A DNA stretch of 64,000 bases. It comes from Tubulanus polymorphus. Taxonomy: Eukaryota; Animalia; Nemertea. This document shows positions 8-63,055 of this stretch, in pieces (the first letter of the stretch is position 1; each line of letters starts with the position of its first letter). Made by a program: the position numbers and the translations under genes. The stretch lies in the NCBI RefSeq assembly GCF_964204645.1, contig NC_134028.1, positions 10,168,001-10,232,000 of the forward strand, read 5' to 3'. Under the pieces are notes generated by a model. The model did not search any database, had not been told where the DNA came from, and was given only the letters and a program-made list of their open reading frames with translations.

Positions 8-229
8 TTATATGGGAGGAATATATTTTTGTTTTTCCAAATAATCAATAGTTAAATTAGATAAAGTAACTGCTAACGTTAATTTTAAAATATCATTTAT
101 ATCAAATCTATCAACATTAACACTTCCCATTTTGAATACTTTTTTTAATACCATTGAATAACCAACAGTTCCAACTGATAGTAATGCTCCATTATATAAT
201 CCAGTTATTATCCACTTATTATCACTCAT
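8..229 (-). CDS. small hydrophobic Polinton protein (73 aa)
   Basis: Almost identical to 54837-55058; two hydrophobic segments; starts at TAAATG. Confidence 0.75.
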   Translation of the reverse strand: MSDNKWIITGLYNGALLSVGTVGYSMVLKKVFKMGSVNVDRFDINDILKLTLAVTLSNLTIDYLEKQKYIPPI

Positions 230-232
230 TTA

Positions 233-586: not shown

Positions 587-602
587 TTATATAGTGAAAA
601 AA

Positions 603-1361: not shown

Positions 1362-1429
1362 TATTTATAACATAAAAAAATTACCAATCATCACTAAAAA
1401 TTAATTTTAATAAAATTTTTCCTAAATCA

Positions 1430-2744
1430 ATGGATGAGAAGATAGCATGCGAAATTTGTGGTGAACTTCTAAGAAAAAGTAATATGGCTCGACATATGAA
1501 AAAACATGATTAAAATTATAAACCCCCCAAAAATAAACTGCCCAAAATGTAATAAATTATTCTAAAGAAATTATGTTAAAAAACATTCAGAGAAGTGTAG
1601 AATTAATGACGCAACGGCTAATGTTGATAGTAATGAAAGTAATAGTAATTCTGCCGAAGTTGAACCTGAAGTTATTTGGAAAAGACCTTTCTTATTCTAT
1701 GATAAGGATAATATAAAAGATCATTTCTGTGAGCCTTGTCGAATAAAATATAACGCTGAAAATATAGAAGATTGGGAGAATCATCAATTTCGTAAAGTAC
1801 ATATAGATGAAATTTCTAATAAATTTGAAACTGAATTTAATGAAAGAAAAAATAATTTATTAGAAAAAATAAAATATGAGAAAACGTTACCAGATCATAA
1901 AGAAACAGTTGAAAAGTTAGAAAAACAATAAAATGAATTAACAAGAAAAACATATTATTGTAAATATTGTAAATTGATTATTACAACAAGTAATTCAAAT
2001 CTACATAATAGAACAATAAAACATAAAGAAAACGTAAGAAAATACCAAGAGCTTAATGAAGATCTATTACCAATAAATTATAAACAAAAATGCCCACAAT
2101 GTATTTATGCGACCTTAAGGCAAGAAGGTACTGTGTTATTTTGTGTTGATTGTGGATGGCAAAAGAATTTATGGGGTGAAGAAAAAACTAGAAATTTTCT
2201 CATAGATCCAAAATTAAATTATCTAGATGAAATTTTTAAAATATTTTCTATAGAAGATCATACACCAGAATATATGCAATGGCTTGAAAAAATGAAAATA
2301 ATAGAAAATAAAAATGGTGAAATAACTAAAAAAGATATTATAAATACAATTATTCCGTCAACATTTAACACAAAACAAAAGAAAATGTATTTATATTTAT
2401 TATTTAACGATTATTATGAAAAACCTAAATTAACAGAAGAAGATATGGAAAATATAAAAAAAATATTCAAACAAATATTAATGTATCATTTGGAAAATAG
2501 AATAACAGATTCAATAAATTATGAATTCTTTTTAAATAAGATTGTAAATTATTTAAACCTAGATATTATAATTCCATTTGACGAATTAACAAACAAAAAG
2601 AAACAAAGAGAGCGAGATGAAATGTGGAACAAGATAGAACTTTATTTAAATGAAAAAAATGGAATGGAAGAAGAACCTAAACAATTAAATGAAAATGAAG
2701 AAGACAATAGTGATTTCGAGTTTGATGATATTGATCCATTTTAA
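1430..2744 (+). pseudogene. zinc-finger protein with C-terminal VLTF3 (poxvirus A2)-like late transcription factor domain, disrupted
   Basis: ATG at 1430 inferred from copy B. Stops and a frameshift in the 5' part; 1974-2744 is open. Contains a CPQC..CVDC Zn ribbon and C-terminal INYEFFLNKI...QRERDEMWNKI. Confidence 0.7.
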
Positions 2745-5700
2745 TAACCATAAGGTAATGTTTTTATACCATCATCTGAAATATGCCTTTTATCATCAAA
2801 TGGATTTAAACTAGTTTTTTCAACTTCATTAATGTACATCTCGTGATCTTCTGATCTTAAACAATTCATTTTATGTTTCATTACAATTGAGTTATATAAA
2901 CACTTTATATAATCTTGAAATTCTATATGTTTATCAACCACATGTTTTGTTATTCCTTTTAACTTTTTAGCTTCATGATCTTTTGTTCTGTAACTATACA
3001 TTTTACTTCTTATCCCAACAAATTCAATCATTTCATCGCCCCCTAAATCATCTTTAAACTTACCAGGAATCTTTTTATTATCATTGCTAAATAGTTCATG
3101 ATCTTTGGGATAATTGCTAAAATCAAAATGATGTTTTAATGTTTTTAAGTCTTTTGTTATATCATTTGTCTTGATTTTTAGTATGTAGGCGTCGGTATTT
3201 TTTTGGATTAATGGGAACCCAGAATTGAATGTTCCATCATCTGTTGATAAATCATAAACATAGTCAGTTGGGTTATATATTTCAAATAAATCTTTAACTT
3301 CTTCTGTTAACTCATTTTCTACATGTCTTAAATTAAAGCAATTTGGTTTAGATTTAATCAATCCAATATTCATATTAAATCCTAATGAACTGCATAATAT
3401 ATTCAATCCTGATATAGCAACTTTTCCTTTTTGAGCTAAAGATATTGTTTTGAAACTTTTTGAACCATCTGCTGCATAGAATCCAATGAAGAACCATTTT
3501 CTTAAATTATTTTTTGCATTTAATACATAATCTGGAACTATCTTTTCTTTAGTTGAAGTATTACTTTTCACTATTGCATGAATATAGAATTCATCATTAT
3601 ATTTTGTAGCAAAATCTTTAGGATTATTTACAAATATTCTATAAACCGCGGATGATTTCATATGATCCATGATTCTAAATGTTTTATGTGAATAAACTTC
3701 TTCGGAGAATTTCTTTATTCTTTCTAATAATTTCAAATCTTGATTGCATAAATACCAACGATAGTGCGTGCGATTAACATAATTATACACGCCTGCTAAA
3801 CCATCACCCATGAAAAATCCTTTGATAAAATATTCTTTTTCTTCTAATGTTTCGGGTTCTATATTATAAATATTATCAATTATTTCATCAAATGACATAT
3901 GATTCATTCTTTGGAAAAATCTTTTATGTAATAATTCATGTCCAATTTTTATATCAGTTGGTTTTATTTCATCACCATTTCGTTTAATTAAACTATGATC
4001 TTCTGTAACATCTACAAATCCTAATTTAGTTCTAACTCTATAGATTTTCTTATTTGTTTTATGCCTAATAATATTCTTTAATTTTTTCCATCCATTTCTT
4101 GTCCAAACATCCATTGAACCATTTATTTGTATTAATTCTTTTTCTCCATATGAAATATAACATTCATTTTGTTTTGGAATTATTTCTGAAATTCTTCCTA
4201 TCAATATTTTATTATTACATTTTAATAATATTGGGGTGTCAGCTGTTACAGAATCAAAATATAATATTTCAATATGCTTTTCCCCAAAAAGTGGTTGTAA
4301 AACATTATAATAAAAATCATACATTAATAATTTTGATACTTCTAAAACAGTTGAACCAATAAATATAGGTTTATTAAATTTCATTGATGTTCTTTTTAAT
4401 TTAACTGCTGTTAAATAATCTTCAAATCTTTTATTTCCTAAATGTCTAGGACTTGATTGTAGGTGTCTTAATCTTTCAGAATTATTTACTAATTCAATAT
4501 CATTTCTATTTCTAATATTTTCACATGTTTTACCATAAAAACTATTGTTCATTAATTTAAAAAAATCTTTTTCGAAATCTGTTTTTGATATGGTTCTCTG
4601 TTGAGTATTGAAATCTATATATTTTTCTAACCACTTCGATTGATTAAATTCAATATATCTATGTACTTTCTTTAATTTCATTCCTTGTTTTAGATAAAAT
4701 TTTAACATTCTATAATGAACAATATAATTGTATTTATTATTTTGAGTAAGTATTAATTTTTCTGTAAAAACATGATCTTTCGGTTTTATTTTCTTCTGGT
4801 ATTCACTTAAATAACTATCATCTACAGTTAAATGTTCTGGGCAATAAGGTAAGTTTCTTGTTTTAAACTTTATATTTTCAGGATATTCTAAATCAACTAC
4901 AAAGAAATAACCAATTGGTGCTTCATCTTCTAAACTCATAATTGCGCTTTCCCAATTAGTTTTATCATCACTTTCAACTTCTGTTAATATAAAATTTTCG
5001 TATGGTTGAGGTTGCATCATTGCCCAACCATATAAATTATTGGCGTCAATATATAATAATTTATATTCATCATTTGCTTTAAAATATCTATCTTCCATAA
5101 CACCACTAATTCCACCTCTAATTGATTTTTCAAATAATAAAACCATATCTGGTTCTTTTAATAAATCTAATTCTACATTTGTATATTTTAAACCACATTG
5201 CCAGGTTAAACCAGGACTAGAGTAGCAATAACAAGGATCAACATTAAAATGATTCAAATTAACTTCTCTAAATTTTTCAAATATGTCCGCCAATATCATA
5301 ACATCTGATTTTAAATATAAATCAACTAATTCACCACGATTTTTCATCTTAAAATGGTTCCAAATATTTAATCTTCTATTAAACACTTCGTATTTCACAT
5401 ACTCCTCTTTTAATTGATCATAAAATTGATCTTTTAATAATTCTGTTACATTAAAATCATTGTGTGTTTTATAAAATGAATAAGGAATTGCGCCTTTATA
5501 TCTCAATAATTTAAAATCTTGTTCATTTGGATAATAATATCGAGTTATACCAAAATCATTATCATCTAAACTTTTTGATAAATTATCTAATGAACTTGCT
5601 AGAAATCTATAAGAATCTAAAAATCTAATGCAACCAAATTGAAATGAAATATAATTTTCAGATGTTTTAGCTAATAGTTTAAAATCATATTTTCTTACAT

Positions 5701-7792
5701 TTACACCATTCATAGCATTATATTCTTCTATTTCTTAATTAATTGCACCCAATTTTCCCGATAATTGTTTTATAAATAGATGGGTATCATAGCCTGATAA
5801 ATTATGAAATAATATTGGTACGAAATTAACTGTCTTAGCTTGTAAATTAAAATCTTCATGAGCAGCTCCACGATATTTTGAATTTAAATGATCATGATCT
5901 CTAACTTTTTTATCAAATGGATAAAAACGTTTTTCACAATAACAACAATGAGTTGCATAATTAAAATCAATTTCATCTTCTTTTGTCATAACTATTCTTT
6001 TATTTTTGTTTAATAATTTTGCAAAATCACTTTTTAATTCAATAATTTTATCACAAAAATCATTAACTACATTTTCACCTCTAAAAAAATATATTGACTT
6101 TCATATAATTCAGGATAATTTGATTTTATATAAATTCCATAAGCAGCAGCTCTTTGATGAACTTTTTAAATTGTATTTATAATTGGTGGGTCTTTTGTTG
6201 TGTCTTCATTTAATTCATTTCCTTTATCCATTGATTTTAATAATTGCTTTTTGTTATATATTTCTTTTCTATCTTGATCAGTTAATTCTTTATTCAACGA
6301 TTCGAAATCCCCATAAATTACAAATGGAACAATATTCTTAAATTTATGATTAGTAAATTTCAATTTATAATCTTTTTCTGTTGGCATTATTAATTTACAA
6401 AAATCTTTATTATCACATAATTCTTTATGTTTTAATAATGTATTCTCAGTCATAAATTTAGATAAACATTTTCAACATAGATTAATTTTACGATGATGAT
6501 CACTTTCTGTTCTAAAGAATAAATCAATTTGTTTTAACCACATATAATGTTCATTTTCATCTTTTTTTATAATATAACAAATCTATAGCATTTTCATCAT
6601 CATAATATTCTGTTAAATATAAAGCTTCCAATGTATAATCTTTAATATTTTCACCTTTTGTCTTTGGTAATTGCATTAATTCAAATACATTTATTTTTAA
6701 ATTATTAACTTTTTCTATTTTAGGAATAATTTTTATAGTTACTGGATATTGATCAATTTTATATAATGTTTCATATTTCCGATAATCTGTTATTCTACAA
6801 ACATTTTCCTGTGTTGGATGTAAGCAACTAATAATTGACCATAGAAAACATTTATTATCTTCATTTTGAATATTTATTACTGCTTTTGTTGTAAATGGTA
6901 ATTTAATATAAGATGATGCTTTAATATCTTTTTCTGTTGTAAAGTTTGAATTATCTTTAAACATTTTATTGCTTTTTGATGTTTTATTCCTTTTTGTATT
7001 ATAAACATTTAAATCTAAATATATAATTTCGTTCAATGTTAAGTCAGAACCCTCAAAATACCTTTCTTCAATATGACGTTTAAATTCATTAAATATTTTT
7101 TCTAACTTCTCTTTTATTTGTGTTTTTGAAATTATTTCTTCAGAGTGTGTTTGGATATTATAATTCATTTTTTCTTCTGACTTTATAAAACTTACTTTCC
7201 CAGAGATACTAATTTTTGGATATTCAACATCTGTTATCAAATCTAATATTTTTTCTATTATTTCATTAAATGTACTATAATCTTCTATTGTTGTACCTTT
7301 AAAAAATCTAAATATAATAGCTGCAGGACCAATTTTACTATGTAATGTTTCTAAAATTTCAATTGTATCTTTTATTAGTGAATCAATATAATTTCTAACA
7401 TTTTCCATGTAAGATTTATTTGAAATGGATTTAGTTTTTGAAGTTGGTTTTTTTACTTTTTGAGGTTTATCGTCAAAATAATCTTTTCCTAAAACATTAT
7501 TACTCAAATTTTGATGGTGTTTTTGTGATTCGAGATGTCTATTATAATTCCTTTTTACTATAAATTCATTACAAACTTCACATTTTATTTCATCCACATT
7601 CATATTTTCTAATCTTTCTTTTCTTTCATTGGAATTTTCTGGAGTTTCAAAATCTATTACATTTTTTATATGATTTGCAGTTTTTTCGTGTCGTGTTTTA
7701 TGAGATGTATCGACGTATTTTTTACAATATTTGCAATAATATTGATTTTTATTAACATTATTATTTTCTGGCTGGTGTTCATTCTCCCCCAT
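2741..7792 (-). pseudogene. polB: protein-primed family B DNA polymerase (pPolB) with intein; 5' part broken by stops/frameshifts
   Basis: Fragments at 6557-7792, 6166-6453, 5735-5989 and 2741-5713. Exonuclease motifs FVIYGDFES, FHNLSGYD, YLKSDV; polymerase motifs YIDANNLYGWAM, KLMNNSFYGK, YFD/TD. Confidence 0.93.
3197..4252 (-). other. intein with LAGLIDADG homing endonuclease in pPolB motif C (352 aa), copy A
   Basis: YFD|SVTADTPILL (block A, Ser1); VTEDHSL (block B TxxH); FIKGFFMGDG and FFIGFYAADG (endonuclease blocks); YVYDLST (block F); LIQKN|T (terminal Asn, +1 Thr). 1056 bp, in frame. Confidence 0.93.
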
Positions 7793-8224
7793 TTATTAGG
7801 GGAAAAAATTAATTGTGGTGATGAGTGGTGTCTCGCCCTCTCGCCCTCTGATCTGAAACCCACATCTTCCAATTACTCACGAGGAAAAAGTTTTTCTGGT
7901 CATTCCACCTGATGATGGCTGTTAGTCAACTAACCTGGTTAGTCAACTAACCAGGAGACTTTTTCCCTGGCGCCAACCGTAGCATTTTCATTCCACGGGA
8001 CTACATATTGCAGTACGTCACAGTGAGCAACCGAAAATAGTACATAATTACCAATTATAATCTTCTTTAGTAAAAAAGTTAAATATATGACTTACTGAAA
8101 CCTACATATTTGGTGAATATCTCAAGCGTGGTATTACTATTACTCGATAGATGGCAGCACATGCAGAAAATTAGAGTAGGCCTAGTAAGAAACGGAAGTT
8201 GACTCGAGGTTCCTGGTGTAGAAA

Positions 8225-47241: not shown

Positions 47242-47263
47242 TAATTTTTTTTCCTTATAAATG
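47242..47263 (+). promoter_or_regulatory. recurrent intergenic motif TAATTTTTT-Nx-TAAATG (example instance), poxvirus-late-promoter-like
   Basis: TAAATG overlaps the ATG at 47261, 54480, 54837, 55083, 55525, 55976, 57382, 58862, 60139, 61268, 62161, 62699 and 53607 (minus strand). Most are preceded by AATTTTTT. Confidence 0.7.
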
Positions 47264-50200
47264 GGGGAGAATGAACACCAACCAGAAAATAATAATGTTA
47301 ATAAAAATCAATATTATTGTCAATATTGTAAAAAATACATCGATAAATCCCAAAAATCACGGCATGAAAAATCTGCAAATCATATAAAAAATGTAATAGA
47401 TTTTGAAACTCCAGAAAATTCCAATGAAAGAAAAGAACGATTAGAAAATATGAATGTGGATGAAATAAAATGTGAAGTTTGTAATGAATTTATAATAAAA
47501 AGGAATTATAATAGACATCTCGAATCACAAAAACATTATAAAAATTTAAATAAAAATGTTTTAGGATCAGAATATTTTGATAATAAACCTCAACAAGTAA
47601 AAAAATCACCTTCAAAAACTAAATCCATTTCAAATAAACCTTACATGGAAAATGTTAGAAATTATATTGATTCACTAGAAATAAAAGATACAATTGAAAT
47701 TTTAGAAACATTACATAGTAAAATTGGTCCTGCAGCTATTATATTTAGATTTTTTAAAGGTACAACAATAGAAGATTATAGTAAATTTAATGAAATAATA
47801 GAAAAAATACTAGATTTGATAACAGATGTTGAATATCTAAAAATTAGTATCTCTGGGAAAGTAAGTTTTATAAAGTCAGAAGAAAAGATGAATTATAATA
47901 TTCAAACACTCTCTGAAGAAATAATTTCAAAAACACAAATAAAAGAGAAGTTAGAAAAAAAATTAAATGAATTTAAACGTCATATTGAAGAAAGATATTT
48001 TGAGGGTTCTGGCTTAACATTGAATGAAATAATATATCTAGATTTAAATGTTTATAATACAAAAAGAAATAAAACATCAAAAAGTAATAAAATGTTTAAA
48101 AATGATTCAAACTTTACAACAGAAAAGGATATTAAAGCATCATCTTATATTAAATTACCATTTATTACAAAAGCAGTAATAAATATTCAAAATGAAGATA
48201 ATAAATGTTTTCTATGGTCAATTATGAGTTGCTTACATCCATCACAGGAAAATGTTTGTAGAATAACAGATTATCGGAAATATGAAACATTATATAAAAT
48301 TGATCAATATCCAGTAACTATAAAAATGATTCCTAAAATAGAAAAAGTTAATAATTTAAAAATAAATGTATTCGAATTAATGCAATTACCACAGACAAAA
48401 GGTGAAAATATTAAAGATTATACATTGGAAGCTTTATATTTTACAGAATATTATGATGATGCAAATGTTATAGATTTGTTATATTACAAAAAAGATGAAA
48501 ATGAACATTATATGTGGTTAAAACAAATTGATTTATTCTTTAGAACAACAGAAAGTGATCATCATCGTAAAATTTATCTATGTAGAAAATGTTTATCTAA
48601 ATTTATGACTGAGAATGCGTTACTAAAACATAAAGAATTATGTGATAATAAAGATTTTTGTAAATTAATAATGCCAACAGAAAAAGATTATAAATTGAAA
48701 TTTACTAATCATAAATTTAAGAATATTGTTCCATTTGTAATTTATGGGGATTTTGAATCATTGAATAAAGAATTAACTAATCAAGATAGAAAAGAAATAT
48801 ATAACAAAAAACAATTATTAAAATCAATGGATAAAGGAAATGAATTAAATGAAGACACAATACAAGACCATTATGCATACAATTAAAAAAGTTCATCAAA
48901 GAGCTGCTGCTTACGGAATTTATATAAAATCAAATTATCCTGAATTATATGAAAGTCAATATATTTCTTTTAGAGGTGAAAATGTAGTTAATGATTTTTG
49001 TGATAAAATGATTGAATTAGAAAGTGATTTTGCAAAATTATTAAACAATAATAAAAGAATAGTTATGACAAAAGTAGATGAAATTGATTTTAATTATGCA
49101 ACTCATTGTTGTTATTGTGAAAAAAATTTTTATTCATTTGATAAAAGAGTTAGAGATCATGATCATTTGAATTCAAAATATCGTGGAGCTGCTCATGAAG
49201 ATTGCAATTTACAAGCTAAAAAAGTAAATTTCGTGCCAATATTATTTCATAATTTATCAGGATATGATACCCATCTATTTATAAAACAATTATCGGGAAA
49301 ATTGGGCGCAATTAATCAAGAAATAGAAGAATATAATGCTATGAATGAAGCAAATGTAAGAAAATATGATTTTAAACTATTAGCTAAAACATCTGAAAAT
49401 CATATTTCATTTCAATTTGGTTGCATTAGATTTTTAGATTCTTATAGATTTCTAGCAAGTTCATTAGATAATTTATCAAAAAGTTTAGTTGATAATGATT
49501 TTGTTATAACTCGATATTATTATCCAAATGAACAAGATTTTAAATTATTGAGATATAAAGGCGCAATTCCTTATTCATTTTATAAAACACACAATGATTT
49601 TAATGTAACAGAATTATTAAAAGATCAATTTTATGATCAATTAAAAGAGGAGTATGTGAAAGACGAAGTTTTTAATAGAACATTAAATATTTGGAACCAT
49701 TTTAAGATGAAAAATCATGGCGAACTAGTTGATTTATATTTAAAATCAGATGTTATGATATTGGCTGACATATTTGAAAAATTTAGAGAAGTTAATTTGA
49801 ATCATTTTAATGTTGATCCTTGTTATTGCTACTCTAGTCCTGGTTTAACCTGGCAATGTGGTTTAAAATATACAAATGTAGAATTAGATTTATTAAAAGA
49901 ACCAGATATGGTTTTATTATTTGAAAAATCAATTAGAGGTGGAATTAGTGGTGTTATGGGAGATAGATATTTTAAAGCAAATGATGAATATAAATTATTA
50001 TATATTGACGCCAATAATTTATATGGTTGGGCAATGATGCAACCTCAACCATATAAAAATTTTATATTAACAGAAGTTGAAAATGGTGATAAAACTGATT
50101 GGGAAAGCGCAATTACGAGTTTAAAAGATGAAGCACCAATTGGTTATTTCTTTGTAGTTGATTTAGAATATCCTGAAAATATAAAGTTTAAAACAAGAAA

Positions 50201-52314
50201 CTTACCTTATTGCCCAGAACATTTAACTGTAGATGATAGTTATTTAACTGAATACCAGAAGAAAATAAAACCGAAAGATCATGTTTTTACAGAAAAATTA
50301 ATACTTACTCAAAATAATAAATACAATTATATTGTTCATTATAGAATGTTAAAATTTTATCTAAAACAAGGAATGAAATTAAAGAAAGTAAATAGATATA
50401 TTGAATTTAATCAATCGAAGTGGTTAGAAAAATATATAGATTTCAATACTCAACAGAGAACCATATCAAAAACAGATTTTGAAAAAGATTTCTTCAAATT
50501 AATGAATAATAGTTTTTATGGTAAAACATGCGAAAATATTAGAAATAGAAATGATATTGAATTAGTAAATAATTCTGAAAGATTAAGACACCTACAATCA
50601 AGTCCTAGACATTTAGGAAATAAAAGATTTGAAGATTATTTAACAGCAGTTAAATTAAAAAGAACATCAATGAAATTTAATAAACCTATATTTATTGGTT
50701 CGACTGTTTTAGAAGTATCAAAATTATTAATGTATGATTTTTATTATAATGTTTTACAACCACTTTTTGGGGAAAAGCATATTGAAATATTATATTTTGA
50801 TATTGTAACAGCTGACACCCCAATATTATTAAAATGTAATGATAAAATATTGATAAGAAGAATTTCAGAAATAATTCTAAAACAAAATGAATATTATATT
50901 TCATATGGAGAAAAAGAATTAATACAAATAAATGGTTTAATGGATGTTTGGACAAGAAATGGATGGAAAAAATTAAAGAATATTATTAGGCATAAAACAA
51001 ATAAGAAAATCTATAGAGTTAGAACTAGATTAGGATTTGTAGATGTTACAGAAGATCATAGTTTAATTAAACGAAATGGTGATGAAATAAAACCGACTGA
51101 TATAAAAATTGGAGATGAATTATTACCTAAAAGATTTTTCCAAAGAATGAATCATATGTCATTTGATGAAATTATTGATAATATTTATGATATAGAACCC
51201 GAAACATTAGAAGAAAAAGAATATTTTATCAAAGGATTTTTCATGGGTGATGGTTCAGCAGGTGTGTATAATTATGTTAATCGCACTCAATATCGTTGGT
51301 ATTTATGCAATCAAGATTTGAAATTATTAGAAAGAATAAAGAAATTCTGCGAAGAAGTTTATTCATATAAAACATTTAGAATCATGGATCATATGAAATC
51401 ATCGGCGGTTTATAGAATACTTGTAAATAATCCTAAAGATTTTGCTACAAAATATAATGATGAATTCTATATTCATGCAATAGTGAAAAGTAATACTTCA
51501 ACAAAAGAAAAGATAGTTCCAGATTATGTATTGAATGCAAAAAATAATTTAAGAAAGTGGTTCTTCATTGGATTCTATGCCGCAGATGGTTCAAAAAGTT
51601 TCAAAACAATATCTTTAGCTAAAAAAGGAAAAGTTGCTATATCAGGATTGAATATATTATGCAGTTCATTAGGATTTAATATGAATATAGAATTAATTAA
51701 ATCTAAACCAAATTGTTTTAATTTAAGGCATGTAGAAAAAGAATTTACAGAAGAAGTTAAAGATTTATTTGAAATATATAACCCAACTGACTATGTTTAT
51801 GATTTATCAACAGATGATGGAACATTCAATTCTGGGTTCCCATTAATCCAAAAAAATACCGACAGTTACATACTAAAAATCAAGACAAATGACATAACAA
51901 AAGACTTAAAAACATTAAAACATTATTTTGATTTTAGCAATTATCCCAAAGATCATGAACTATTTAGTAATGATGATAAAAAGATTCCTGGTAAATTTAA
52001 AGATGAATTAGGGGATGATGAAATGATTGAATTTGTTGGGATAAGAAGTAAAATGTATAGTTACAGAACAAAAGATCATGAAGCTAAAAAGTTAAAAGGA
52101 ATAACAAAACATGTGGTTGATAAACATATAGAATTTCAAGATTATATAAAGTGTTTATATAAATCAATTGTAATGAAACACAAAATGAATTGTTTTAAGA
52201 TCAGAAGATCATGAGATGTACATTAATGAAGTTGAAAAAACTAGTTTAAATCCATTTGATGATAAAAGGCATATTTTAGATGATGGTATAAAAACATTAC
52301 CTTATGGTTATTAA
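47261..52314 (+). pseudogene. polB: pPolB with N-terminal Zn fingers, OTU-like protease, HNH/EndoVII insertion and intein; frameshifts near 48860 and 52195
   Basis: ORFs 47261-48886 and 48849-52214 plus a tail to TAA at 52312-52314; all exonuclease and polymerase motifs present; DNKCFLW..EHY; CCYC..RDHDHL..YRGAAHEDCN. Confidence 0.93.
50802..51857 (+). other. intein with LAGLIDADG endonuclease in pPolB motif C, copy B (residue 1 is Ile, not Ser)
   Basis: YFD|IVTADTP ... LIQKN|TDSY; 1056 bp, in frame; same blocks as copy A. Confidence 0.92.
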
Positions 52315-53607
52315 AATGGATCTATATCATCAAACTCGAAATCACTATTGGCTTCTTCATTTTCATTTAATTGTTCAGGTTCTTCTTCCATTCCATTTTT
52401 TCCATCTTGTTCCACATTTCATCTCGCTCTCTTTGTTTCTTTTTGTTTGTTAATTCATCAAATGGAATAATAATATCTATGTTTAAATAATTTACAATCT
52501 TATTTAAAAAGAATTCATAATTTATTGAATCTGTTATTCTATTTTCCAAATGATATATTAATATTTGTTTAAATATTTTTTTTATATTTTCCATATCTTC
52601 TTCTGTTAATTTAGGTTTTTCATAATAATCGTTAAATAATAAATATAAATACATTTTCTTTTGTTTTGTGTTAAATGTTGATGGAATAATTGTTTTTATA
52701 ATATCTTTTTTAATTATTTCACCATTTTCATTTTCTATTATTTTCATTTTTTAAGCCATTGCATATATTCTGGTGTATGATCTTCTATAGAAAATATTTT
52801 AAAAATTTCATCAAGATAATTTAATTTTGGATCTATGAGAAAATTTTTAGTTTTTTCTTCACCCCATAAATTCTTTTGCCATCCACGATCAACACAAGAT
52901 AACACAGTACCTTCTTGCCTTAAGGTCGCATAAATACATTGTGGGCATTTTTGTTTATAATTTATTGGTAATAGATCTTCATTAAGCTCTTGGTATTTTC
53001 TTACGTTTTCTTTATGTTTTATTGTTCTATTATGTAGATTTGAATTACTTGCTGTAATAATCAATTTACAATATTTACAATAATATGTTTTTCTTGTTAA
53101 ATCATTATATTGTTTTTCTAACTTTTCAACTGTTTCTTCATTATCTGGTAACGTTTTCTCATATTTTATTTTTTCTAATAAATTATTTTTTCTTTCATTA
53201 AATTCAGTTTCAAATTTATTATAAATTTCATCTATATGTACTTTACGAAATTGATGATTCTCCCAATCTTCTATATTTTCAGGGCTATATTTTATTCGAC
53301 AAGGCTCGCAGGAATGATCTTTTATATTATCCTTATCATAGAATAAGAAAGGTCTTTTCCAAATAACTTCAGGTTCAACTTCAGCAGAATTACTATTACT
53401 TTCATTACTATCAACATTAGCCGTTGCACCATTAATTCTACACTTCTCTGAATGTTTTTTAACATAATTTCTTGAGAATAATTTATTACATTTTGGACAG
53501 TTTATTTTAGGGGGTTTATAATTTTCATCATGTTTTTTCATATGTCGAGCCATATTACTTTTTCTTAGAAGTTCACCACAAATTTCGCATGCTATCTTCT
53601 CGTCCAT
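52311..53607 (-). pseudogene. C2H2 zinc-finger plus VLTF3-like protein, frameshifted
   Basis: CEIC..HMKKH, CPKC..H, YCKYCK..H fingers; ORFs 52744-53607 and 52367-52747; C-terminal INYEFFLNKI..DEMWNK. Confidence 0.7.
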
Positions 53608-53674
53608 TTATTTAGGAAAATTTTATTAAAATTAATTTTTAGTGATGAGCGGTAATTTTTTTATGTTATAAATA

Positions 53675-54463
53675 ATGGTATAATTAAAAGAACACAGAAT
53701 ATTTGTTGATTCTAGAAAACTTACAAATTATAAATCACATAATTTACTAGTACAATTAGATAGAGAATTTAAGAATTGTGTTGATTTAAAATTAGTTAAT
53801 ATAAGTTTATGTAACTCATTTTACAATATACCAGATAAAACTTATGAACATAGAAGTTTTTTTATTCTTGATAAACGTAGTAATAATAATTTTCAACTTA
53901 TGATTACACCAGGATTATATAATTTAGAAACATTAGCGCAAGAAATTAATAGAAAAGCTCGGATTATGTTAGGTAGTGATTCTAAATCTAATATTAAATT
54001 CATAAAAAGTGAGAGCTCTAATAAAATTAAAGTAAAGTTTGATGATGAAAATATTAGTCCTGATTCATTTATGTTAAGAAGACATGCTTACGCGGTAAAA
54101 AAACCTTTTGCTAAACTGTTAGGAATTCCTCCAGATAAACTTATTGTTGGAAACATATACGGTATATCAAACTTAATACCTTTTACACATTTTTATATTT
54201 ATTGCAATTTAATTAACCCAACAAAAACATTTGAAGCAACTAAAGATACAATTTGTAATTCTAGTATATTAAATATTTTACCATTAAAAAATGTCAAACA
54301 ATTTGGAACTCAAATAAATTATAATTTAACTGAATGTGATTTCAAACCTTGTATTCCACATTTCAATAATTTTAAATTAGAAATAAGAAATCATAATGGT
54401 TATTTAATTGATTTGAATAACTTTCCTGTAATTTATGAATTAGTTATAAGATGTAAAGAGTAA
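53675..54463 (+). pseudogene. penton/minor capsid protein; nonsense codon at codon 3
   Basis: ATG GTA TAA here versus ATG GTA GAA in copy A; the rest is open and homologous to 603-1361. Confidence 0.72.
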
Positions 54464-54479
54464 TTTTTTCACTATATAA

Positions 54480-54833
54480 ATGAATATAACTGTTGGACCG
54501 AGTATATGTTTTGGGTTTGATTTTAAACGTGAGAAAGAAATGAAATTTAACATTAATGATGTAATTACACAAATCAAAAATATTGCATTTTCTAATGAAA
54601 CAACATTTAAGTATGAAAAAACAATAGATAAAGAAACTTTAAATGTAGAAAAGATTACTAATTTAATTAGAGAATCTTTAAGATTTTATGAATTAGATGA
54701 AGATTTTATCATAGATGATATCAAAAAAATAATAATTGAAATATATACAAATGAAACTAGTAATAAAATAAATGTTGAATTAATCATCACTAAGATAACT
54801 AAATATTTTGAAGATAGTAATTTTTTTGATTAA
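54480..54833 (+). CDS. Polinton hypothetical protein (117 aa)
   Basis: Conserved with 233-586. Confidence 0.75.
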   Translation: MNITVGPSICFGFDFKREKEMKFNINDVITQIKNIAFSNETTFKYEKTIDKETLNVEKITNLIRESLRFYELDEDFIIDDIKKIIIEIYTNETSNKINVELIITKITKYFEDSNFFD

Positions 54834-54836
54834 TAA

Positions 54837-55058
54837 ATGAGTGATAATAAGTGGATAATAACTGGATTATATAATGGCGCCCTACTATCAGTTGGAATTG
54901 TTGGTTATTCAATGGTATTAAAAAAAGTATTCAAAATGGGAAGTGTTAATGTTGATAGATTTGATATAAATGATATCTTAAAATTAACATTAGCAGTTAC
55001 TTTATCTAATCTAACAATTGATTATTTAGAAAAACAAAAATATATTCCTCCCATATAA
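54837..55058 (+). CDS. small hydrophobic Polinton protein (73 aa)
   Basis: Conserved with 8-229. Confidence 0.75.
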   Translation: MSDNKWIITGLYNGALLSVGIVGYSMVLKKVFKMGSVNVDRFDINDILKLTLAVTLSNLTIDYLEKQKYIPPI

Positions 55059-55082
55059 TTACATAATTTTTTTACTAAATAA

Positions 55083-55505
55083 ATGGCTTCTGCAATTATA
55101 ACTATTATAGGATCGGCAATTGTTAACGCTTTGGCATTTACTGGTGGTGGATATTTATTTAAACATATTGATAAAAATAGTTCATTAGGAGAACAAAGAA
55201 GACATAACTTAGCATTAGAGAAATACAATAAAGCAGCAGAAGAATATAGAGAAAAGAGGCAAAACTATATGGATTATATTAACAAGGAATTATATGATCA
55301 GAAGATTTCACATAGAGATTTTCAATCAGTTGATGATGCAATGAGTTTATATAACGCAGTAACAAATAAAGAAAAATTACATCTATACAAACCTAAATTA
55401 TCAGATTATTATACCCCAAGTAAAGAACAACAGAAATATGAAATAATATGGATTTTAGGTGGAACTGTTATTGTTATATTTGTAGCATATAAATTTACTA
55501 ATTAG
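55083..55505 (+). CDS. Polinton membrane protein (140 aa)
   Basis: Gly/Ala-rich hydrophobic N-terminus, central coiled coil, C-terminal TM segment; TAAATG start. Confidence 0.7.
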   Translation: MASAIITIIGSAIVNALAFTGGGYLFKHIDKNSSLGEQRRHNLALEKYNKAAEEYREKRQNYMDYINKELYDQKISHRDFQSVDDAMSLYNAVTNKEKLHLYKPKLSDYYTPSKEQQKYEIIWILGGTVIVIFVAYKFTN

Positions 55506-55524
55506 TAATTTTTTTTCTAAATAA

Positions 55525-55959
55525 ATGGAAAATAAAGTTGATAGTATTGATATCATTCCTCATGATATAAATAAAACTAAATTAAAAATATATTTAGAAA
55601 AACAAATATTAGAATTTGAAAGTGACTTAAAGATAAAAAAGAAAAAATATTTAAAATGTAAAATTATATATTATTTGATTATTAGTGGTTCGGTTACAAT
55701 TAGTTCTGTAATAACATTTCTAGCAATATTCAGTCCATTAACACCTTTAGCTATATCAATTGGTGTATTAGGATTAAGTTCAAGTGTATTAACCGGCATA
55801 AGTTCAAAATTAAATATAAAAAGTAATAAAGAAAAAATGAAAACTAATATAAAAGAAATTAATAAATTAAAGAACACACTAGATTATATCATGAGTTTAA
55901 ATGGTCATATAACAGTTGAAGAACAAGATAAATTATTAAAAGAATTAATAAATTATTAA
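55525..55959 (+). CDS. Polinton two-TM coiled-coil protein (144 aa)
   Basis: Hydrophobic hairpin flanked by Lys-rich helices; TAAATG start. Confidence 0.7.
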   Translation: MENKVDSIDIIPHDINKTKLKIYLEKQILEFESDLKIKKKKYLKCKIIYYLIISGSVTISSVITFLAIFSPLTPLAISIGVLGLSSSVLTGISSKLNIKSNKEKMKTNIKEINKLKNTLDYIMSLNGHITVEEQDKLLKELINY

Positions 55960-55975
55960 TTTTTTAATTATATAA

Positions 55976-57365
55976 ATGGTAGATAGTTTTCCAAAAGCCT
56001 TCCAATATAATAAATCAATTAAATATAATATTCCAGCAATAGATTTTAATAAAGATATTACATATAGAAATGAAATTTTAGATTCATTAACTAATTTAGA
56101 AATTTATGTTACTGAAACTAATAATTTTAATGCAAAGATGGAAAATATATTTCATGTATATTTAATTGATTTTAAAAAATTGAAAGATGAAAAACAATGG
56201 TTATTAAAATCTAATATGAAGTATTGGCAGAACCAATTAAATTTTGCTGTTTATTGTGCAACAACAGGATGTGGAATTAGTTGGAATGATCATTTGAATA
56301 ATTCTAAATATAAATTAATTCAAAGTTTATTTAGATTTCATACATACTTTCAAATCAGAATAATATTTAATGAATTAGAGTGCGCTTTACCAGGATCAAG
56401 ATATTTTTAAAGAATTAGATAATAATACTAATTTATCAAAGTTTTATAAAATTTGTAATGAATTTAATATAGATATAAATAATTCTGATTTTAGAACAAA
56501 AAATGGAACAATAAGATCCCTTCCTTGCCCTAAAAAGATTGCAGAATATTGTGCACTTCCCATACCATCTAATAGCTTTTATAATATCTATAATAATAAA
56601 TTAGGTTATGGTAAAATAGAAACTAAGGATTTAGAAACATTAAATTTCAATAAATTACCGAAATTTTATGATAATTTAAAACAAGAAAACAATAATGGTT
56701 GGGTTTATTTCATTTTAGAAAACAGTGAAGGTTTTACAAAATCAGGTATACAAAGAATAAATCAATCTATTAGAACTTATTTGATATGTATTCTAGGTGC
56801 ACAAGTTGAAACAAGATCCCCAATAATTGGAAATTTAAATACATCATTTGATACACAGAAACAATTTAAAGTTTTATTTGACGATTCAATTCATAATGAT
56901 AAAAATAGATCGATTCCAGAAAACATTATAAGATATCAAAATTATTTAGATAAATCTCATGTAAGGCTTAATTATTGTATAGGCCCTAATCTATTTATTA
57001 TTTCTAATGATTTAGTATTAAAGATGGGAAACATAATTGGTTATAATAATCTAATTAAAACTGCAACAATAAATAATTCATTTGGATTGAATGATATAAA
57101 TAAAAAGATTATTACTGCTCCAAAATTAATGGAAGGTGAAAAAAATAAAAAACACATTCAATCAACAGAAACTAAAACTAAGAATATTAAATTAAATAAT
57201 GATTCTAAAATAAAAGATTATAATACATCAGAAAATAATAGAACTGATATTATTCAACATGATATAATTAAAACTGATAATGATAATAAATCCCATGAAA
57301 ATACTAAATTAGCTATAACTTGTATAGGAATTGTAATCGGAGGAATATTATATTTTAAATTTTAA
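55976..57365 (+). pseudogene. Polinton protein of unknown function with C-terminal TM, frameshifted near 56405
   Basis: ORFs 55976-56410 (WQNQLNFAVYCATTGCG) and 56781-57365 appear to be one gene; intergenic motifs bound both ends. Confidence 0.6.
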
Positions 57366-57381
57366 TTTTTTTATTATATAA

Positions 57382-58811
57382 ATGGATGTAGAAGGTGGAG
57401 AAGATATTGGAATGGATCCTTTTGATGAACCTGGTATAACTGATGAACAACTACTGATTTTGATGAAACAAGTTTAAATGATGGTAATGAGCCAGAATAT
57501 AATAATAATTTGAATATGCCTGATTATATTAAAAATGCAGAATCACAATTAAATCCTGAAAATTTAGACCCAGATTTAGTAAAACAAGATTTCGATAATT
57601 TAAACAAAATACCTAAATTAGAAGATTTAATTGAAAAATCTAAACTTAACATAAATGATGAAGACGTTGGACTTTTAGCAGATCAATTAAAATTTTTAGA
57701 TAATGGTAAATGTTATTATCGTTTGAAAGGTGATTATTATATTGATATCACTTATAAAAATAATAAAAACAAAATATTATCAGAATCAACTTTAGAAAAA
57801 TTAAAACCAGATAGAATTAAAATAATAAGTAATAGTAATGAAATAACTGATGTTACACAAAAAGAAATAGATGATAATATAGACGTATTTAAACAAAGAA
57901 TTAATGAATTATTTGAAATAATCAAAAAGAAATCAGAAACAGAAACAACATCTGAACAGAATATAACTTCCAAAACTAGTAAACTTAAATCAAATAAAGT
58001 TTCAATTGAAAAACTTTTACCGAATGGATTAATTGATGCAACAGATCAACAATTAGAAGATTTAAATATATTTTCTGATGAAGCAATTAGAGAAATTATT
58101 AGTATAAGAAATGAAGCTGATAAAATTGCACATAATAAAAGTATAAGAGATCAAAAATTATGTATTTGGAAAAAGAATTAACTAATGCAAATAAAGAAAT
58201 AGAACAAATAAAGTCTGATTTAGATCATCAAGTAATTGATGAAATAGAATATAGGCAAAAAGAATTACGTTTAGAAAAAGAAATTAATAATTTAAAAGAT
58301 AATTTAGAAGTACAAAAAGAAGAAATTAAATTATTATCAAAATCATATGATTATAATATAAATAGATTAAAAGTTATTTTTAAAGATTTATTCTGAAATA
58401 TCACTGAAAGATAGAATAAAGTTATTATTCAAATTAGAAGGAATAACAATTCTTTCAATTCTAACAGCTGTAACTATGTTATGTACAACAATTGGTTTAG
58501 CAATATCAAATGCTTTGAAATCTACTCCTACTCCCAATAAACCGGATAAACCCCCGAATGATAATAATTCTATACAAGATAAAGTTAAAGATGGTTTAAA
58601 GAAATTAGCAAAATATTTATGGGAACTATCTAAAAAATCTGCTGCAGCTTTACCAGGAATTATTGCATCAATTGTTGGTTTTATATTGAAATCTGCTGGG
58701 AATATTCTTAACTTTGCTGCTGAACATATTATTTTATTTTTAATTACAGTTGTAAGTGCTATTATCTTTGGGTTAGTAAATATGATATCAAAAAATATCA
58801 AGAAAAAATAA
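57382..58811 (+). pseudogene. acidic/coiled-coil protein with C-terminal hydrophobic segments, frameshifted
   Basis: TAAATG at 57382; fragments 57510-58181, 58160-58396 and 58476-58811. Confidence 0.6.
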
Positions 58812-58861
58812 TAAAAAATAAACATGATAAAAAATAAATAATTAATTTTTTTGTTAAATAA

Positions 58862-60108
58862 ATGAGTGGGAGTTATATAAGTCCTTCTAAGATTTCTAGA
58901 ATACTAATGCTATTAAAGCAGAAAGATCACATCATATAATTACTCATAATCCTTCAAATATTAATCCTGATGAAACTTTATATGTTAGAATTCCTAGATT
59001 AACACAAAATACTTTTTATGTTCCAAATAGTATTTATTTATCAGCCGATATAAAAGTAAATGGTCATGATAACAATTATGTTGTTGATAATGTTGGAAGA
59101 TATTTGATTAAAAAATTAACTATAAAGATTGGTCCAGAAACAGTTTTCTCATTAGATGATTATAATTTATTTATGCATTATAAAGATTTATGGTTAACTA
59201 AAGAAAATAGAAATAATATGATATTTCAGGGTATTCAATCGAAAAACCATAATAAATTAAGATCAGGAGCTTATGACGCAATAGTAACTCGTGCCACAGA
59301 TAATTTGATTAAAAAGATTTATGGAAGCAAATATAAAATTCCATTAGACTATGAATTGATAAATAATAATGCACCTTTATATAAATACGCAATTCAAGAA
59401 GATATTATATTTGAGATAACATTTGCTCCTGTAAATGAAATTGTATTATCTAGCGTTGTTAAAGATATGGGTTATAAATTATCGAATATATGTTTAGAAT
59501 ATAACACAGTAACTAATGAAAATATTGCTAGCACAATTCAAACTCAATACAATCAAGGATTTTCATTATTATATGATTATATTGATAAATTTAAAACCGT
59601 AACTATTAATGCAAATGATGAAATAATTAATGAGAATATTAACTTCCCAAGAAGATCTATTAAAGGTATATTAATATTTTTTACCATTGCAACATATTCT
59701 AATGGTGCAATAAAGGTAGATAATTATTATAATCCTGAAATAACAAAAGTTGAAATAACTATCGAAGGAATAGCAAATAAAATATTTTGTCAAGGAATGA
59801 GAATGATTGATCAATGGCCAGAAATTAGAAAACATTTTATGAATGAAAAAGTAAAATCATTTGAAAATTGTAATATTAATCAAATTGATTATTATACCGC
59901 TAATAAATATGCATTATGGTTAGATTTTAGAACAACAGAGGATAATTCATTACATGGTTCTGGGAAGAAATTACAGAACACTAAAGATGGAATACAATTA
60001 TTCATGAAAAAGAAAAAAGGAGACAAAAATTTCAAAATGCACATTTATATTATATCTGACGCGCAATTAAATATTGTAAATTCACAATTAGATAGTATTC
60101 AATATTAG
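58862..60108 (+). pseudogene. major capsid protein (double jelly-roll, hexon-like); frameshift near the 5' end
   Basis: HNPSNINPDETLYVRIP..VDNVGRYLIKKL; NENINFPRRSIKGIL; YALWLDFRT..DNSLHGSG; position next to integrase and ATPase. Confidence 0.75.
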
Positions 60109-60138
60109 AAATATAAAGTTAAAATTAAGGATATATAA

Positions 60139-61267
60139 ATGGGTGGTAAAAAAACTCCTAATACTAAAGAACAATATTTAAGAAATTTATATTACAACCC
60201 TGAGAGTTCAGTTGCTTATTCTTCTACTAAAAATATATGGCGTCAAGTAAAACAAGATAAATTAGATAAGATAATCCCACAAAATTTAGTTAAATATAAA
60301 GATATAAATGAATTTATGTTAGAACAACCAACATATACAACACATAAAAAATTGTTAGAAAATATAAAACTCGTAAAACTATGATAAGTTATGTAAATCA
60401 ACAGTGGCAAGGAGATTTAATTGATATGAAAAATGTTAAGAAAGATAATGATGATTATTGGTGGTTATTGAATATAATTGATATTTTTAGTCGTTATGTA
60501 TGGAGCTTCCCACTTTATAGAAAAGATGCTGTACAAACATCAAATGTTTTAAGAAAATTTCTTTCGGATGATAAACTAAAACCAGAAAAAAAAACAATTT
60601 GATGATGGAAAAGAGTTTGATAATTCACTTGTTCATGAACTCTCAGATAATCATAATATTAATTATTTTTCAACAAAATCGGATAAAAAAGCAGCAGTTG
60701 TTGAACGATTTAATAGAACATTAAGAACAAGAATGTGGAAATATTTTACAGCAAATAATACTTTTAAATGGATTGATGTTTTGCCAAAATTGATAGAAGG
60801 ATATAATAATTCTTATAATTCTTCTATTGGAATGAAACCTATTGATGCTAGAAAACCTGAAAATGCTGAAATTGTTTGGAATAATTTATATGGAGCATTT
60901 CTTGTAGATGATTTTGGTGAACCTAAATTTAAAAGTTGGTCAAAATGATAGAATTTCTAAGTATAAAAAGATATTTGATAAAGGATACGATCGAAATTTT
61001 ACTAGAGAAATATATAAAATAAAAAAGGTAATAACAACAAAACCATATGTCTATAAATTAGAAGATTTAGATGGTGAAGAAGTTGATGGCTACTTTTACG
61101 AAGAAGAATTAAGTTTAACTACTGAAAATCTAGAACAAGAATATAAAATTGAAAAAGTATTAAAAACAAAAACTATTAAAAGAAATAAATATTCTTTAGT
61201 AAAATGGGTTGGATGGCCAGATAAATTCAATGAATGGATATTATCAAGTAAAATTAAAAATATATAA
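60139..61267 (+). pseudogene. retroviral-like (rve) integrase with C-terminal chromodomain, frameshifted
   Basis: QWQGDLIDM, IIDIFSRY, DDGKEF, KAAVVERFNRTL, YNNSYNSSIGMKP; YKIEKVL..LVKWVGWPDKFNEWI. Confidence 0.9.
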
Positions 61268-61876
61268 ATGAATAAGGAATTATTCATATTTGAGCCTCAT
61301 AATATGTTAATTTCTGGTGTAACAAATTGTGGAAAAACTTATTTTATATTAAATTTATTAGAAACTGTTTATGAAAACTATTTTGATAATATAGTATTAT
61401 TTTGTCCAACATATGAATTTAATCAAACTTATGATAGAAATATTACTAGAAATAATAAATTTATTATATTAGATCCTAAAACAGTAAAAGAAAATTTAGA
61501 TAATTGTATAAAAAGAGCAATTGATATTTATAAAGGATCAAATACATTATTCATTGTAGATGATTGCGCTAATTTACATGATTCCAAAGTTAGAGAAAGT
61601 GAGTTATGCTATTTAGCTTTCTCTGGGAGACATTTTGGGATAACAACTTGGGTTTTAAATCAAAAATATAATTCAATTGTTAAAGACTTTAGAGAAAACA
61701 TTAGATTTCTAGTTTTATTCTACAATAAAGATAGAAAATCGATGAAAAATGCACTTGAGGAAAATGATATTATTCCACATGATTTACATAATGAATATAT
61801 GGATAATTTGAAAAATATTAAAAGATCAAAATTACTATTTAGATTACAACACCCATTTAAATATGAATTTATATAA
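61268..61876 (+). CDS. A32/FtsK-like DNA packaging ATPase
   Basis: Walker A GVTNCGKT, Walker B LFIVDD, GRHFGI..LNQ; intact 202-aa ORF. Confidence 0.9.
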   Translation: MNKELFIFEPHNMLISGVTNCGKTYFILNLLETVYENYFDNIVLFCPTYEFNQTYDRNITRNNKFIILDPKTVKENLDNCIKRAIDIYKGSNTLFIVDDCANLHDSKVRESELCYLAFSGRHFGITTWVLNQKYNSIVKDFRENIRFLVLFYNKDRKSMKNALEENDIIPHDLHNEYMDNLKNIKRSKLLFRLQHPFKYEFI

Positions 61877-61884
61877 ATTCAATT

Positions 61885-62130
61885 AGTTTGTTAATCTAGT
61901 TGAATTCTAGTTATTGGTATTTGTAACAAAAATCAAATAGATTTAACAATATTTTAACTAGCTTGTTAATCTAGTTTAATTCTAGTTACATTCTAGTTGA
62001 ATTCTAGTTGTTAGTAGTTGAAACAAAAATCAACTAGATTTAACTAGAAATAAACAAAAACAACAATATTTCAACTAGCTTGTTAATCTAGTTGAATTCT
62101 AGTTACATTCTAGTTAAATTCTAGTTGCAA
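61885..62130. repeat. CTAG-rich direct/inverted repeat array in a viral intergenic region
   Basis: Repeated TTAATCTAGTTGAATTCTAGTT and complementary AACTAG units. Confidence 0.75.
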
Positions 62131-62160
62131 CATCACACAATTAATTTTTTTGTTATATAA

Positions 62161-62766
62161 ATGGGAGGTGAAAAGAAAATAAAATCTAAAAATGGTGATG
62201 TTCCAATTGAAAAAACTTTAGATGATTTAGGAATAACTGAAACAAAATTAACTCCAGATGATGGTGCTTTAAATAATGTTACAACAAATAATAATTATGA
62301 ATATTATCTTTATTGTAAACATCAATTAGAAATATTAATAGCATCTGGAAAATGTAAAAATTTTGTCGGTAAAAATTAAACTTATAATGAATTAGATACA
62401 ATGAAATCAGATGAAATTATTAGATTATTTAAGATTTATGAAGCCGCGAGAACAGCTAGAGTTAATGACGCGATATCAGAAAATGTAGTAAAAGGTTATA
62501 GTAAATTATGTAATTATATACTACCAATTGAAGATGAAAATAGATTATATTCCGATTTAAAAAATGATTATTTAGTTATGACTGAATTAAATAAATGGAT
62601 TGGATATTTATCATTTCAATTAGGTGGATTTATGACATTATTATCAACTGGAGTTATAACATTTTCAAATATTGAAAGTAAAAAGATTTCTATAATAAAT
62701 GAGCGAGGTGGAAGAAGTGAAGGAATTAACTGTGAAGAAAAAACCGAGATCACAGAAACAAATTGA
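62161..62766 (+). pseudogene. Polinton hypothetical protein with in-frame stop at 62377
   Basis: 62161-62379 and 62401-62766 are in the same frame; TAAATG start. Confidence 0.6.
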
Positions 62767-63055
62767 ATGGTCTCGGCAATTAGGAATTAAATCACAAGAA
62801 TATAAAAAAGCTGTAAAAGAAAAAATAAGTAATAAAAATGGTGAAAATATTGTTATTTCTACTCCTTCTAATAATAGAATATTTGATAAATGTCTATATT
62901 TTACAGTTGGAGTTGTAATTGTATTCATTTTGATTGGGTGTAATTGGTATAAGAAATCAAATAAAATTCATGATATTAATAATTCTGAAACAACTGCTAT
63001 CAAAAATGAAAATACTTCTGAAATTCCAAAATTTATAATAAAAAAAATGGATTAA
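62699..63055 (+). CDS. Polinton basic protein with TM segment (118 aa)
   Basis: TAAATG start; KKKPRSQKQ basic patch; hydrophobic stretch. Confidence 0.65.
   Translation: MSEVEEVKELTVKKKPRSQKQIEWSRQLGIKSQEYKKAVKEKISNKNGENIVISTPSNNRIFDKCLYFTVGVVIVFILIGCNWYKKSNKIHDINNSETTAIKNENTSEIPKFIIKKMD

Follow-up and report, generated by a model that had tools for sequence, protein, structure and literature searches.

It was through promoter mimicry that protist virophages came to be linked with their helpers. In mavirus and the endogenous mavirus-like elements (EMALEs) of Cafeteria, the promoter motif matches the late promoter of Cafeteria roenbergensis virus (CroV) (PMC8547959), and the polinton-like virus (PLV) Gezel-14T has an early motif resembling the promoter of a large virus (10.1101/2022.07.28.501842). 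Animal genomes and animal viruses offer related systems in the stony-coral polintoviruses (PMC11131425) and the entomopoxvirus-associated PLVs (PMC11296320), and the standing of animal Polintons, as viruses in their own right, as transposons or as parasites of larger viruses, is an open question. Here we address this question with a 64-kb stretch of the nemertean Tubulanus polymorphus genome (contig NC_134028.1, positions 10,168,001 to 10,232,000; the whole stretch analysed is called the window), which holds two copies, A and B, of a polinton-like endogenous virus. Most genes of copy B share a start signal, a T-run followed at a fixed spacing by TAAAT(G), which is probably a late promoter serving the RNA polymerase of a large DNA virus that infects the same cell, the best candidate being a pox-like virus.

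Copy B combines the hallmarks of Maverick-Polintons: a protein-primed family B DNA polymerase (pPolB), an rve integrase, a double-jelly-roll capsid protein and an A32-like packaging ATPase. It is in this respect like the stony-coral polintoviruses and the Maverick-Polintons/adintoviruses, which are endogenous and multi-copy and carry the same four genes, VLTF3 having already been reported in some of the coral elements, in text that, as far as available, says nothing of an affinity to poxviruses (PMC11131425). The window contains two AT-rich islands of about 23% GC within host DNA of about 37% GC; copy B is 77% AT, and the two copies align at 95% identity across 7.9 kb, with the left edge of B corresponding to the edge of A. 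Set against its relative L001, with which it is collinear for about 9.5 kb, copy B proves to have many genes split by frameshifts. In the best DNA sequencing run 14,533 contigs fell on the region, mostly at 90-99% identity or better, a depth that does not equal copy number; another run, presumed to be RNA, hardly covered it, which has no bearing on expression. Copy B is thus a broken virus and the element a multi-copy family; both window copies being broken, the copies themselves, judged by their sequence, cannot be called active. Between the two ends of copy B, of which the right one may be missing, we found neither terminal inverted repeats nor a target-site duplication. Among 23 copy B frames scanned with Pfam there was no RNA polymerase, nor was there one among the scanned extra genes of close relatives, and the element may be incomplete; an adenovirus-type cysteine protease was likewise absent from these 23 frames, several genes having no family and the copy possibly being shortened.

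Gene starts in copy B were defined by open reading frame (ORF) boundaries and homology to an intact relative, independently of any motif, and a TAAATG at 48849 was excluded because it is internal to the polymerase gene. Thirteen of the 14 starts defined in this way read TAAATG, always as ATAAATG (47261, 53607 on the minus strand, 54480, 54837, 55083, 55525, 55976, 57382, 58862, 60139, 61268, 62161 and 62699), as against 30 of the 629 other ATGs in the element (Fisher p 1e-15). This agrees with the initial annotation of the stretch, which had counted 13 such starts in copy B and had noted a variant at the penton gene; the variant is indeed the fourteenth start, TAAATAATG at 53675. The annotation had further described a T-run followed at some distance by TAAATG. 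The distance proves to be a constant 7 nt in 10 starts, whereas four starts (53607, 60139, 61268 and 62699) lack the full T-run. All 10 occurrences of AATTTTTT-N7-TAAAT in the element are at gene starts, compared with 0.17 +/- 0.42 (maximum 2) in 200 dinucleotide shuffles, and none occurs in 39 kb of host DNA (7901-47000), where TAAATG is also missing from the starts of all 23 long host-region ORFs. In 12 of 13 starts the tenth base ahead of TAAAT is a T, versus 9 of 30 non-start TAAATG sites, and at least six T fill the upstream box in 9 of 13 versus 2 of 30. The signal, 21 bases with a defined consensus, is also present at four of the five comparable starts in copy A.

The signal could instead belong to the context of translation starts, or follow from the AT richness of the element and the close packing of its genes, without acting as a promoter. 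At 77% AT, TAAATG is common in bulk (43 copies versus 35 +/- 5.6 in shuffles, an enrichment that is not clear), and the stop codon of the upstream gene supplies the TAA ahead of the T-run at three junctions and the TAA of TAAATG itself at one. We nevertheless regard this reading as highly improbable, given that the 7-nt spacer recurs in 10 of 10 cases where 0.17 are expected, that the signal precedes the first gene as well and is found in the gap between divergent genes, that host ORFs lack it, and that TTTTTNT is not enriched. The signal is kept in relatives at 40-44% GC, and those with loci of 36-44% GC retain TAAATAAATG at the capsid start, so that AT content does not explain it.

Four simpler sources of the signal were ruled out. 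Stop-start coupling fails since the TAA doubles as an upstream stop codon in only one of 13 starts. Kozak bias predicts a purine at -3, and the T found there in 13 of 14 starts is contrary to it. An artefact of ORF definition is excluded by the spurious short first-ATG-after-stop frames of the element, only 16 of 278 of which carry TAAATG. The initial annotation had also invoked TTTTTNT, the poxviral early terminator, and for the T-run this had to be abandoned: TTTTTNT occurs 122 times versus 146 +/- 15 in shuffles, follows 5 of 14 stops and lies nine times within gene bodies, five of these in the polymerase sense strand, and the T-run is also found before the first gene and between divergent genes, where there is no co-oriented upstream gene.

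Relatives were collected by capsid alignment (the best 80 of 289 confirmed metagenome loci, plus three genome loci), and the signal is confined to one clade of them. When the relatives are grouped by capsid identity, homologous starts read TAAATG in 16 of 17 cases (70% or more), 14 of 18 (50-69%), 0 of 17 (40-49%) and 2 of 88 (below 40%); mechanical ORF calling gave 28/31, 26/35, 0/37 and 6/382 for the same classes, the last two including many spurious frames. In a quick capsid tree, built without named references, the TAAATG-bearing relatives cluster. Within this clade T peaks at -12 and -13 (49 and 42 of 54 starts). The distant coral-type/animal Maverick clade of the 2/88 class has its own signal ending in a TATA-like word. 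No capsid relatives were found in viral contigs; distant ones, at 31-39% identity, include one named from a bivalve.

Late promoters of vaccinia virus have a TAAAT, usually followed by G, that overlaps the start codon; the tenth base upstream is a conserved T amid further T residues (PMC11980589), and T residues lie 5-7 nt from TAAAT (PMC5294985); TAAATG is also annotated at many genes of salmon gill poxvirus (PMC4542343). Twelve of 13 element starts have the same initiator, start-codon overlap and T position as the vaccinia and mpox late promoter (PMC11980589), from which the element differs in a longer and stricter upstream box (TAATTTTTT) and in that its signal, of predicted function, belongs to an integrated element of 16 kb that yielded no RNA polymerase gene. 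The identification of TAAAT(G) as a poxvirus signal, made at the outset, therefore stands for the two-part signal, which has vaccinia late geometry, but not for TAAATG alone, which is equally found at iridovirus starts. Poxvirus intermediate promoters combine TAAA with an A-rich upstream part (PMC11980589, PMC5294985), and the integrase and ATPase starts may bear a weak resemblance to them, in two cases of which one is constrained by coding sequence. Given that the poxviral core polymerase itself recognises the TAAA initiator of intermediate promoters (PMC12917281), the exact conservation of TAAAT would be easier to explain with that enzyme.

We therefore propose, with moderate confidence, that T-run plus TAAAT(G) acts as a late promoter through which a large DNA virus, most likely pox-like, would transcribe the element during co-infection. 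A free virus would enter with or after the large virus, whose polymerase, aided by the element's VLTF3, would start within the AAA of each TAAAT and leave almost no 5' untranslated region; if that polymerase is poxviral, slippage would add a 5' poly(A) leader. VLTF3, with a predicted zinc ribbon and a cyclin-like fold as in TFIIB, would help to load the helper polymerase on these promoters, each short intergenic gap serving as the promoter of one gene. While no helper is present, integrated copies would remain silent, as in mavirus, and the two copies in the window would be broken relics of this helper-dependent lifestyle.

Such a virus would compare closely with mavirus, the EMALEs of Cafeteria and Gezel-14T, which are small capsid-coding viruses with pPolB or integrase and integrated copies, and whose genes have in common one upstream motif resembling the promoter of a large virus. 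It differs from them in its animal host, in a TAAAT-type motif instead of TCTA or AAAATTGA, in having its own VLTF3 and in a helper dependence that is only proposed. The entomopoxvirus-associated AHEV_PLV1/2, CBEV_PLV1 and Ca_PLV1 are also polinton-like, tied to poxviruses in animals and marked by gene exchange with large insect viruses; they are about 12 kb long, all with an adenovirus-type protease and without an rve integrase (PMC11296320), whereas the element, compared by descriptions, carries VLTF3 and an intein besides its rve integrase and yielded no protease. A term search of the available text of Barth et al. 2024 gave no motif, TAAAT, transcription, upstream, VLTF or intein (PMC11296320).

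The VLTF3-like gene that the initial annotation had recognised is real, and sequence, predicted fold and a small tree favour its being nearer to poxviral VLTF3 than to that of other nucleocytoplasmic large DNA viruses (NCLDV). Its domain scores 26.7 bits against Pfam PF04947 (cut-off 25), and copy A encodes the VLTF3 domain together with the zinc ribbon in a single frame (1932-2741). Searched against 1.84 billion representatives, the domain matched four proteins at E <=0.001 (P0140-P0143). The N-terminus of P0140 matches a gene of L001, and P0143, a pox-type protein with A2L ribbon and VLTF3, is 63% identical to a gene of the entomopoxvirus-like record L196, which carries A2L ribbon, MSV199 and NAD-dependent ligase. 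No match at E <=0.001 to the VLTF3 region emerged from a 5.8-billion protein set, and a PDB sequence search with the pox-type VLTF3 gave nothing significant. A profile built without pox sequence scored two pox proteins at 51.7 and 39.9 bits and five giant-virus VLTF3 controls at about 1 or less. The fold was predicted with a mean local distance difference test score (pLDDT) of 80.8 from an input alignment that included P0143; its top three fold matches are VLTF3 of cowpox, Diachasmimorpha and Melanoplus entomopoxviruses, with giant-virus VLTF3 next, and its solved-structure matches are weak, to cyclins and TFIIB (Z up to 4.8). A quick tree of 12 rows, unrooted, with long branches and leaving out asfarvirus, iridovirus, egovirus and mriyavirus VLTF3, splits the element and the poxviruses from six giant-virus rows (approximate likelihood ratio support, SH-aLRT, 99).

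The polymerase intein shares 37% identity with that of mimivirus PolB (366 columns) and occupies the same motif-C site, between Y.D and TD. Among the best 120 of 451 intein matches, 116 lie in RNA-primed and two in protein-primed family B polymerases, and mimivirus is the sole virus named. The intein suggests that DNA has been exchanged with large DNA viruses, not with poxviruses in particular.

Several observations weigh against a pox-like helper. The intein was rightly called giant-virus-type at the outset, yet it points to mimivirus-like rather than poxviral polymerases. In a 20.7-kb stretch of L196, TAAATG opens 9 of 20 starts and a T-rich box accompanies only two of the nine, so that the spacing match rests on the vaccinia literature and not on direct comparison; this and the iridovirus comparison below cover stretches of 16-21 kb, and the counts of the iridovirus comparison include orthologues and are not independent, which makes p values too small. 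For VLTF3, one giant-virus control scored 29.5 bits versus 39.9 and 51.7 for the pox proteins, the tree is narrow as described, the Atlas confirms the family but places an A2L-type cluster only at rank 25, behind generic VLTF3 clusters, and the TFIIB-like fold match is weak (Z 4.8, root-mean-square deviation (rmsd) 4.7, 93 aligned). How a cytoplasmic polymerase system would activate a nuclear provirus is unexplained. To these are added the iridovirus starts and the expression of coral polintoviruses, each of which bears on a rival explanation.

The helper might instead be an invertebrate iridovirus, or some other large DNA virus outside the poxviruses; ATAAATG would then be a late-start signal common to several Nucleocytoviricota. 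Invertebrate iridoviruses (Wiseana iridescent virus, IIV-3, Anopheles minimus iridovirus) resemble the element in that near half of their starts read TAAATG (68 of 149 in nine loci), 66 of them as ATAAATG. Scanning viral contigs for the full motif produced 77 single matches, mostly chance hits, of which 26 are followed by an open frame, and no record had two matches in one locus; two of the 77 stand at gene starts of large iridovirus records. The mimivirus-type intein and the deoxynucleoside kinase of L001 would also fit a helper of this kind. We consider it decidedly unlikely, however, because a T peak at -12/-13 is missing from the iridovirus starts (35 of 68 have T at -12, versus 49 of 54 in the polinton clade), because AATAAATG stands at 66 of the 68 versus 25 of 54, and because the affinities of VLTF3 appear poxviral; iridovirus genes are also more widely spaced.

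In the iridoviruses themselves, AATAAATG opens 66 of the 149 starts (L163, L164, L173, L174, L184 and L195), even in IIV-3 at 46% GC. Two reviews on iridoviruses give an AAAAT motif only, and AATAAATG may be an under-described late initiator of this family.

Another possibility is that the signal is a compact promoter read in the nucleus by host RNA polymerase II (Pol II), redirected by the TFIIB-like VLTF3 of the element, which would then be an autonomous virus that took the poxviral factor and promoter grammar together. An rve integrase implies integration in nuclear DNA, a late factor of its own would account for the uniform signal, and TATAWAW-like text occurs at -7 or -8 in seven starts. 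Small viruses with a comparable factor exist among the mriyaviruses, which are not known to have an RNA polymerase. Mriyaviruses measure 35-45 kb and carry VLTF3 (10.64898/2026.06.19.733378). In addition, coral polintoviruses are expressed in control as well as heat-stressed colonies, the available text mentioning no helper (PMC11131425). Against Pol II, there is no TATA box at a common upstream distance, only 4 of 14 starts having one within 150 nt and at scattered positions, and TAAA is recognised by the poxviral polymerase itself (PMC12917281). Gaps measure 0-50 nt at 9 of 11 gene junctions in copy B, and head-to-head ATGs lie 28-30 nt apart in the relatives L007, L008 and L009, which, we infer, leaves little room for ordinary Pol II promoters. 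On this evidence transcription by Pol II seems unlikely, and a late promoter for a pox-like helper polymerase is the reading we prefer.

The features of the two copies are collected in the table.

Table. Features of the polinton-like element (window coordinates)
Feature	Position	Strand	Remarks
Copy B, degraded polinton-like endogenous virus	~47,177-63,126	.	right edge approximate
Copy A, partial, continues past window edge	1..7877	-	95% identical to 47176-55065
AATTTTTT-N7-TAAATG ahead of polymerase gene, first gene of element	47243..47263	+	
Protein-primed family B DNA polymerase, N-terminal zinc fingers, frameshifted	47261..52313	+	Pfam DNA_pol_B_2 E 2.7e-20
Intein, 352 aa, LAGLIDADG-like domain, in polymerase motif C (Y.D / TD)	50802..51857	+	
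Zinc-finger, zinc-ribbon and VLTF3 gene, split in copy B	52367..53607	-	ATAAATG, short T4 run
AATTTTTT-N7-TAAAT-AATG variant ahead of penton candidate, in 67-nt gap between divergent genes	53654..53677	+	
Penton (minor capsid) candidate, interrupted near start	53675..54463	+	DUF5901 weak, E 0.003
Five tightly packed genes	54462..57365	+	starts 54480, 54837, 55083, 55525, 55976; each behind AATTTTTT-N7-TAAATG
Full signal and split gene (485 aa in L001), no function assigned	57364..58811	+	
Full signal and double-jelly-roll major capsid protein, frame broken near start	58844..60108	+	start 58862
rve integrase, C-terminal chromodomain, split	60139..61267	+	ATAAATG, A-rich upstream, no T-run
A32-like packaging ATPase, open frame	61268..61876	+	Pfam Pox_A32 E 1.2e-13; ATAAATG overlaps integrase stop, no T-run
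Full signal and split gene (206 aa in L001), start 62161, then 118-aa gene, start 62699	62143..63055	+	

Both polymerase frames of copy B match one 1693-aa relative, P0172. The capsid model has a pLDDT of 88.9, and its best solved-structure match is a PBCV-1 capsid chain (Z 27.4, rmsd 3.1, 343 aligned); NCLDV capsids rank above adintovirus entries in the fold search, and a PDB sequence search with the capsid profile gave no significant match. The five packed genes encode small membrane-type proteins, with one weak match of SLATT type, and include a split gene that is 442 aa long in L001; the 118-aa gene at 62699 begins with ATAAATG behind an incomplete T-run. The 442-aa gene (55976-57365; L001:2996-4321) is conserved lineage-wide, in 18-23 loci, with no Pfam, NCBIfam or Atlas match, and could be the missing protease or a structural protein. 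L001 additionally encodes a deoxynucleoside kinase on its minus strand (10343-10981; Pfam dNK, E 1.7e-31) behind the same T-run and TAAATG; the gene is absent from copy B and has one distant viral relative at 37%, which does not indicate a donor. Imperfect direct repeats, comprising TTCTAGTT units in blocks of 49-87 nt, occupy the one long intergenic gap of the element (61865-62127), which follows the ATPase gene.

Sister clades of the element (L014, L017, L019-L021, L058; and L023-L081) carry TATA within 12 nt of the ATG at 13 of 17 and 32 of 88 homologous starts, and many of their starts have TTTT-AAATTAGAAAA further upstream; the TATA-type word in place of TAAAT raises the possibility that the helper virus was switched between clades. 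One relative, capsid P0044 (56% identical), is filed under nine Bartonella isolates. It likely represents contaminating host or vector DNA, and hints that the clade also lives in terrestrial animals. L081, a distant member with a tandemly repeated block on a contig binned as an Anaerolineae bacterium, is likely eukaryotic contamination of the bacterial bin.

Both viral copies are depleted in CpG, with an observed/expected ratio of 0.52 in copy B (47176-63126) and 0.59 in copy A (1-7877), versus 0.91 in the host DNA between them. That DNA (7878-47175) is a transposon cluster. It comprises Harbinger-like pieces (12489-14064, with a Myb/SANT gene at 17478-18110), a transposase of P-element-like type (25103-26986), an rva_4 integrase (31982-32884) and Bel/Pao-like remnants (about 43974-46316). 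It also contains a large unassigned transposase-like gene (34646-37710) and a 20-bp tandem array with inversions (9319-9913). These transposons mark the host as an animal; an insect host was rejected as established, the zf-AD match falling below its cut-off and the other transposons being undiagnostic.

Our literature search, which covered largely open-access papers, turned up no polinton of animals described as carrying a late promoter of pox type. If its function holds, the signal represents virophage-type promoter mimicry of a kind that this search did not find reported either for an element of animal genomes or for poxviruses. Tentatively, it may define a clade of integrating poxvirus virophages, multi-copy in the animal germ line, with genes wired to the late programme and a captured pox-type factor. 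If so, the promoter predicts an undescribed pox-like virus in the host lineage, and the TATA-type sister clades would have switched helper, possibly to an asfarvirus-like one. Animals could then possess a heritable anti-poxvirus defence, like that of mavirus in Cafeteria, and the promoters of polintons would be a record of the large viruses that infected a lineage.

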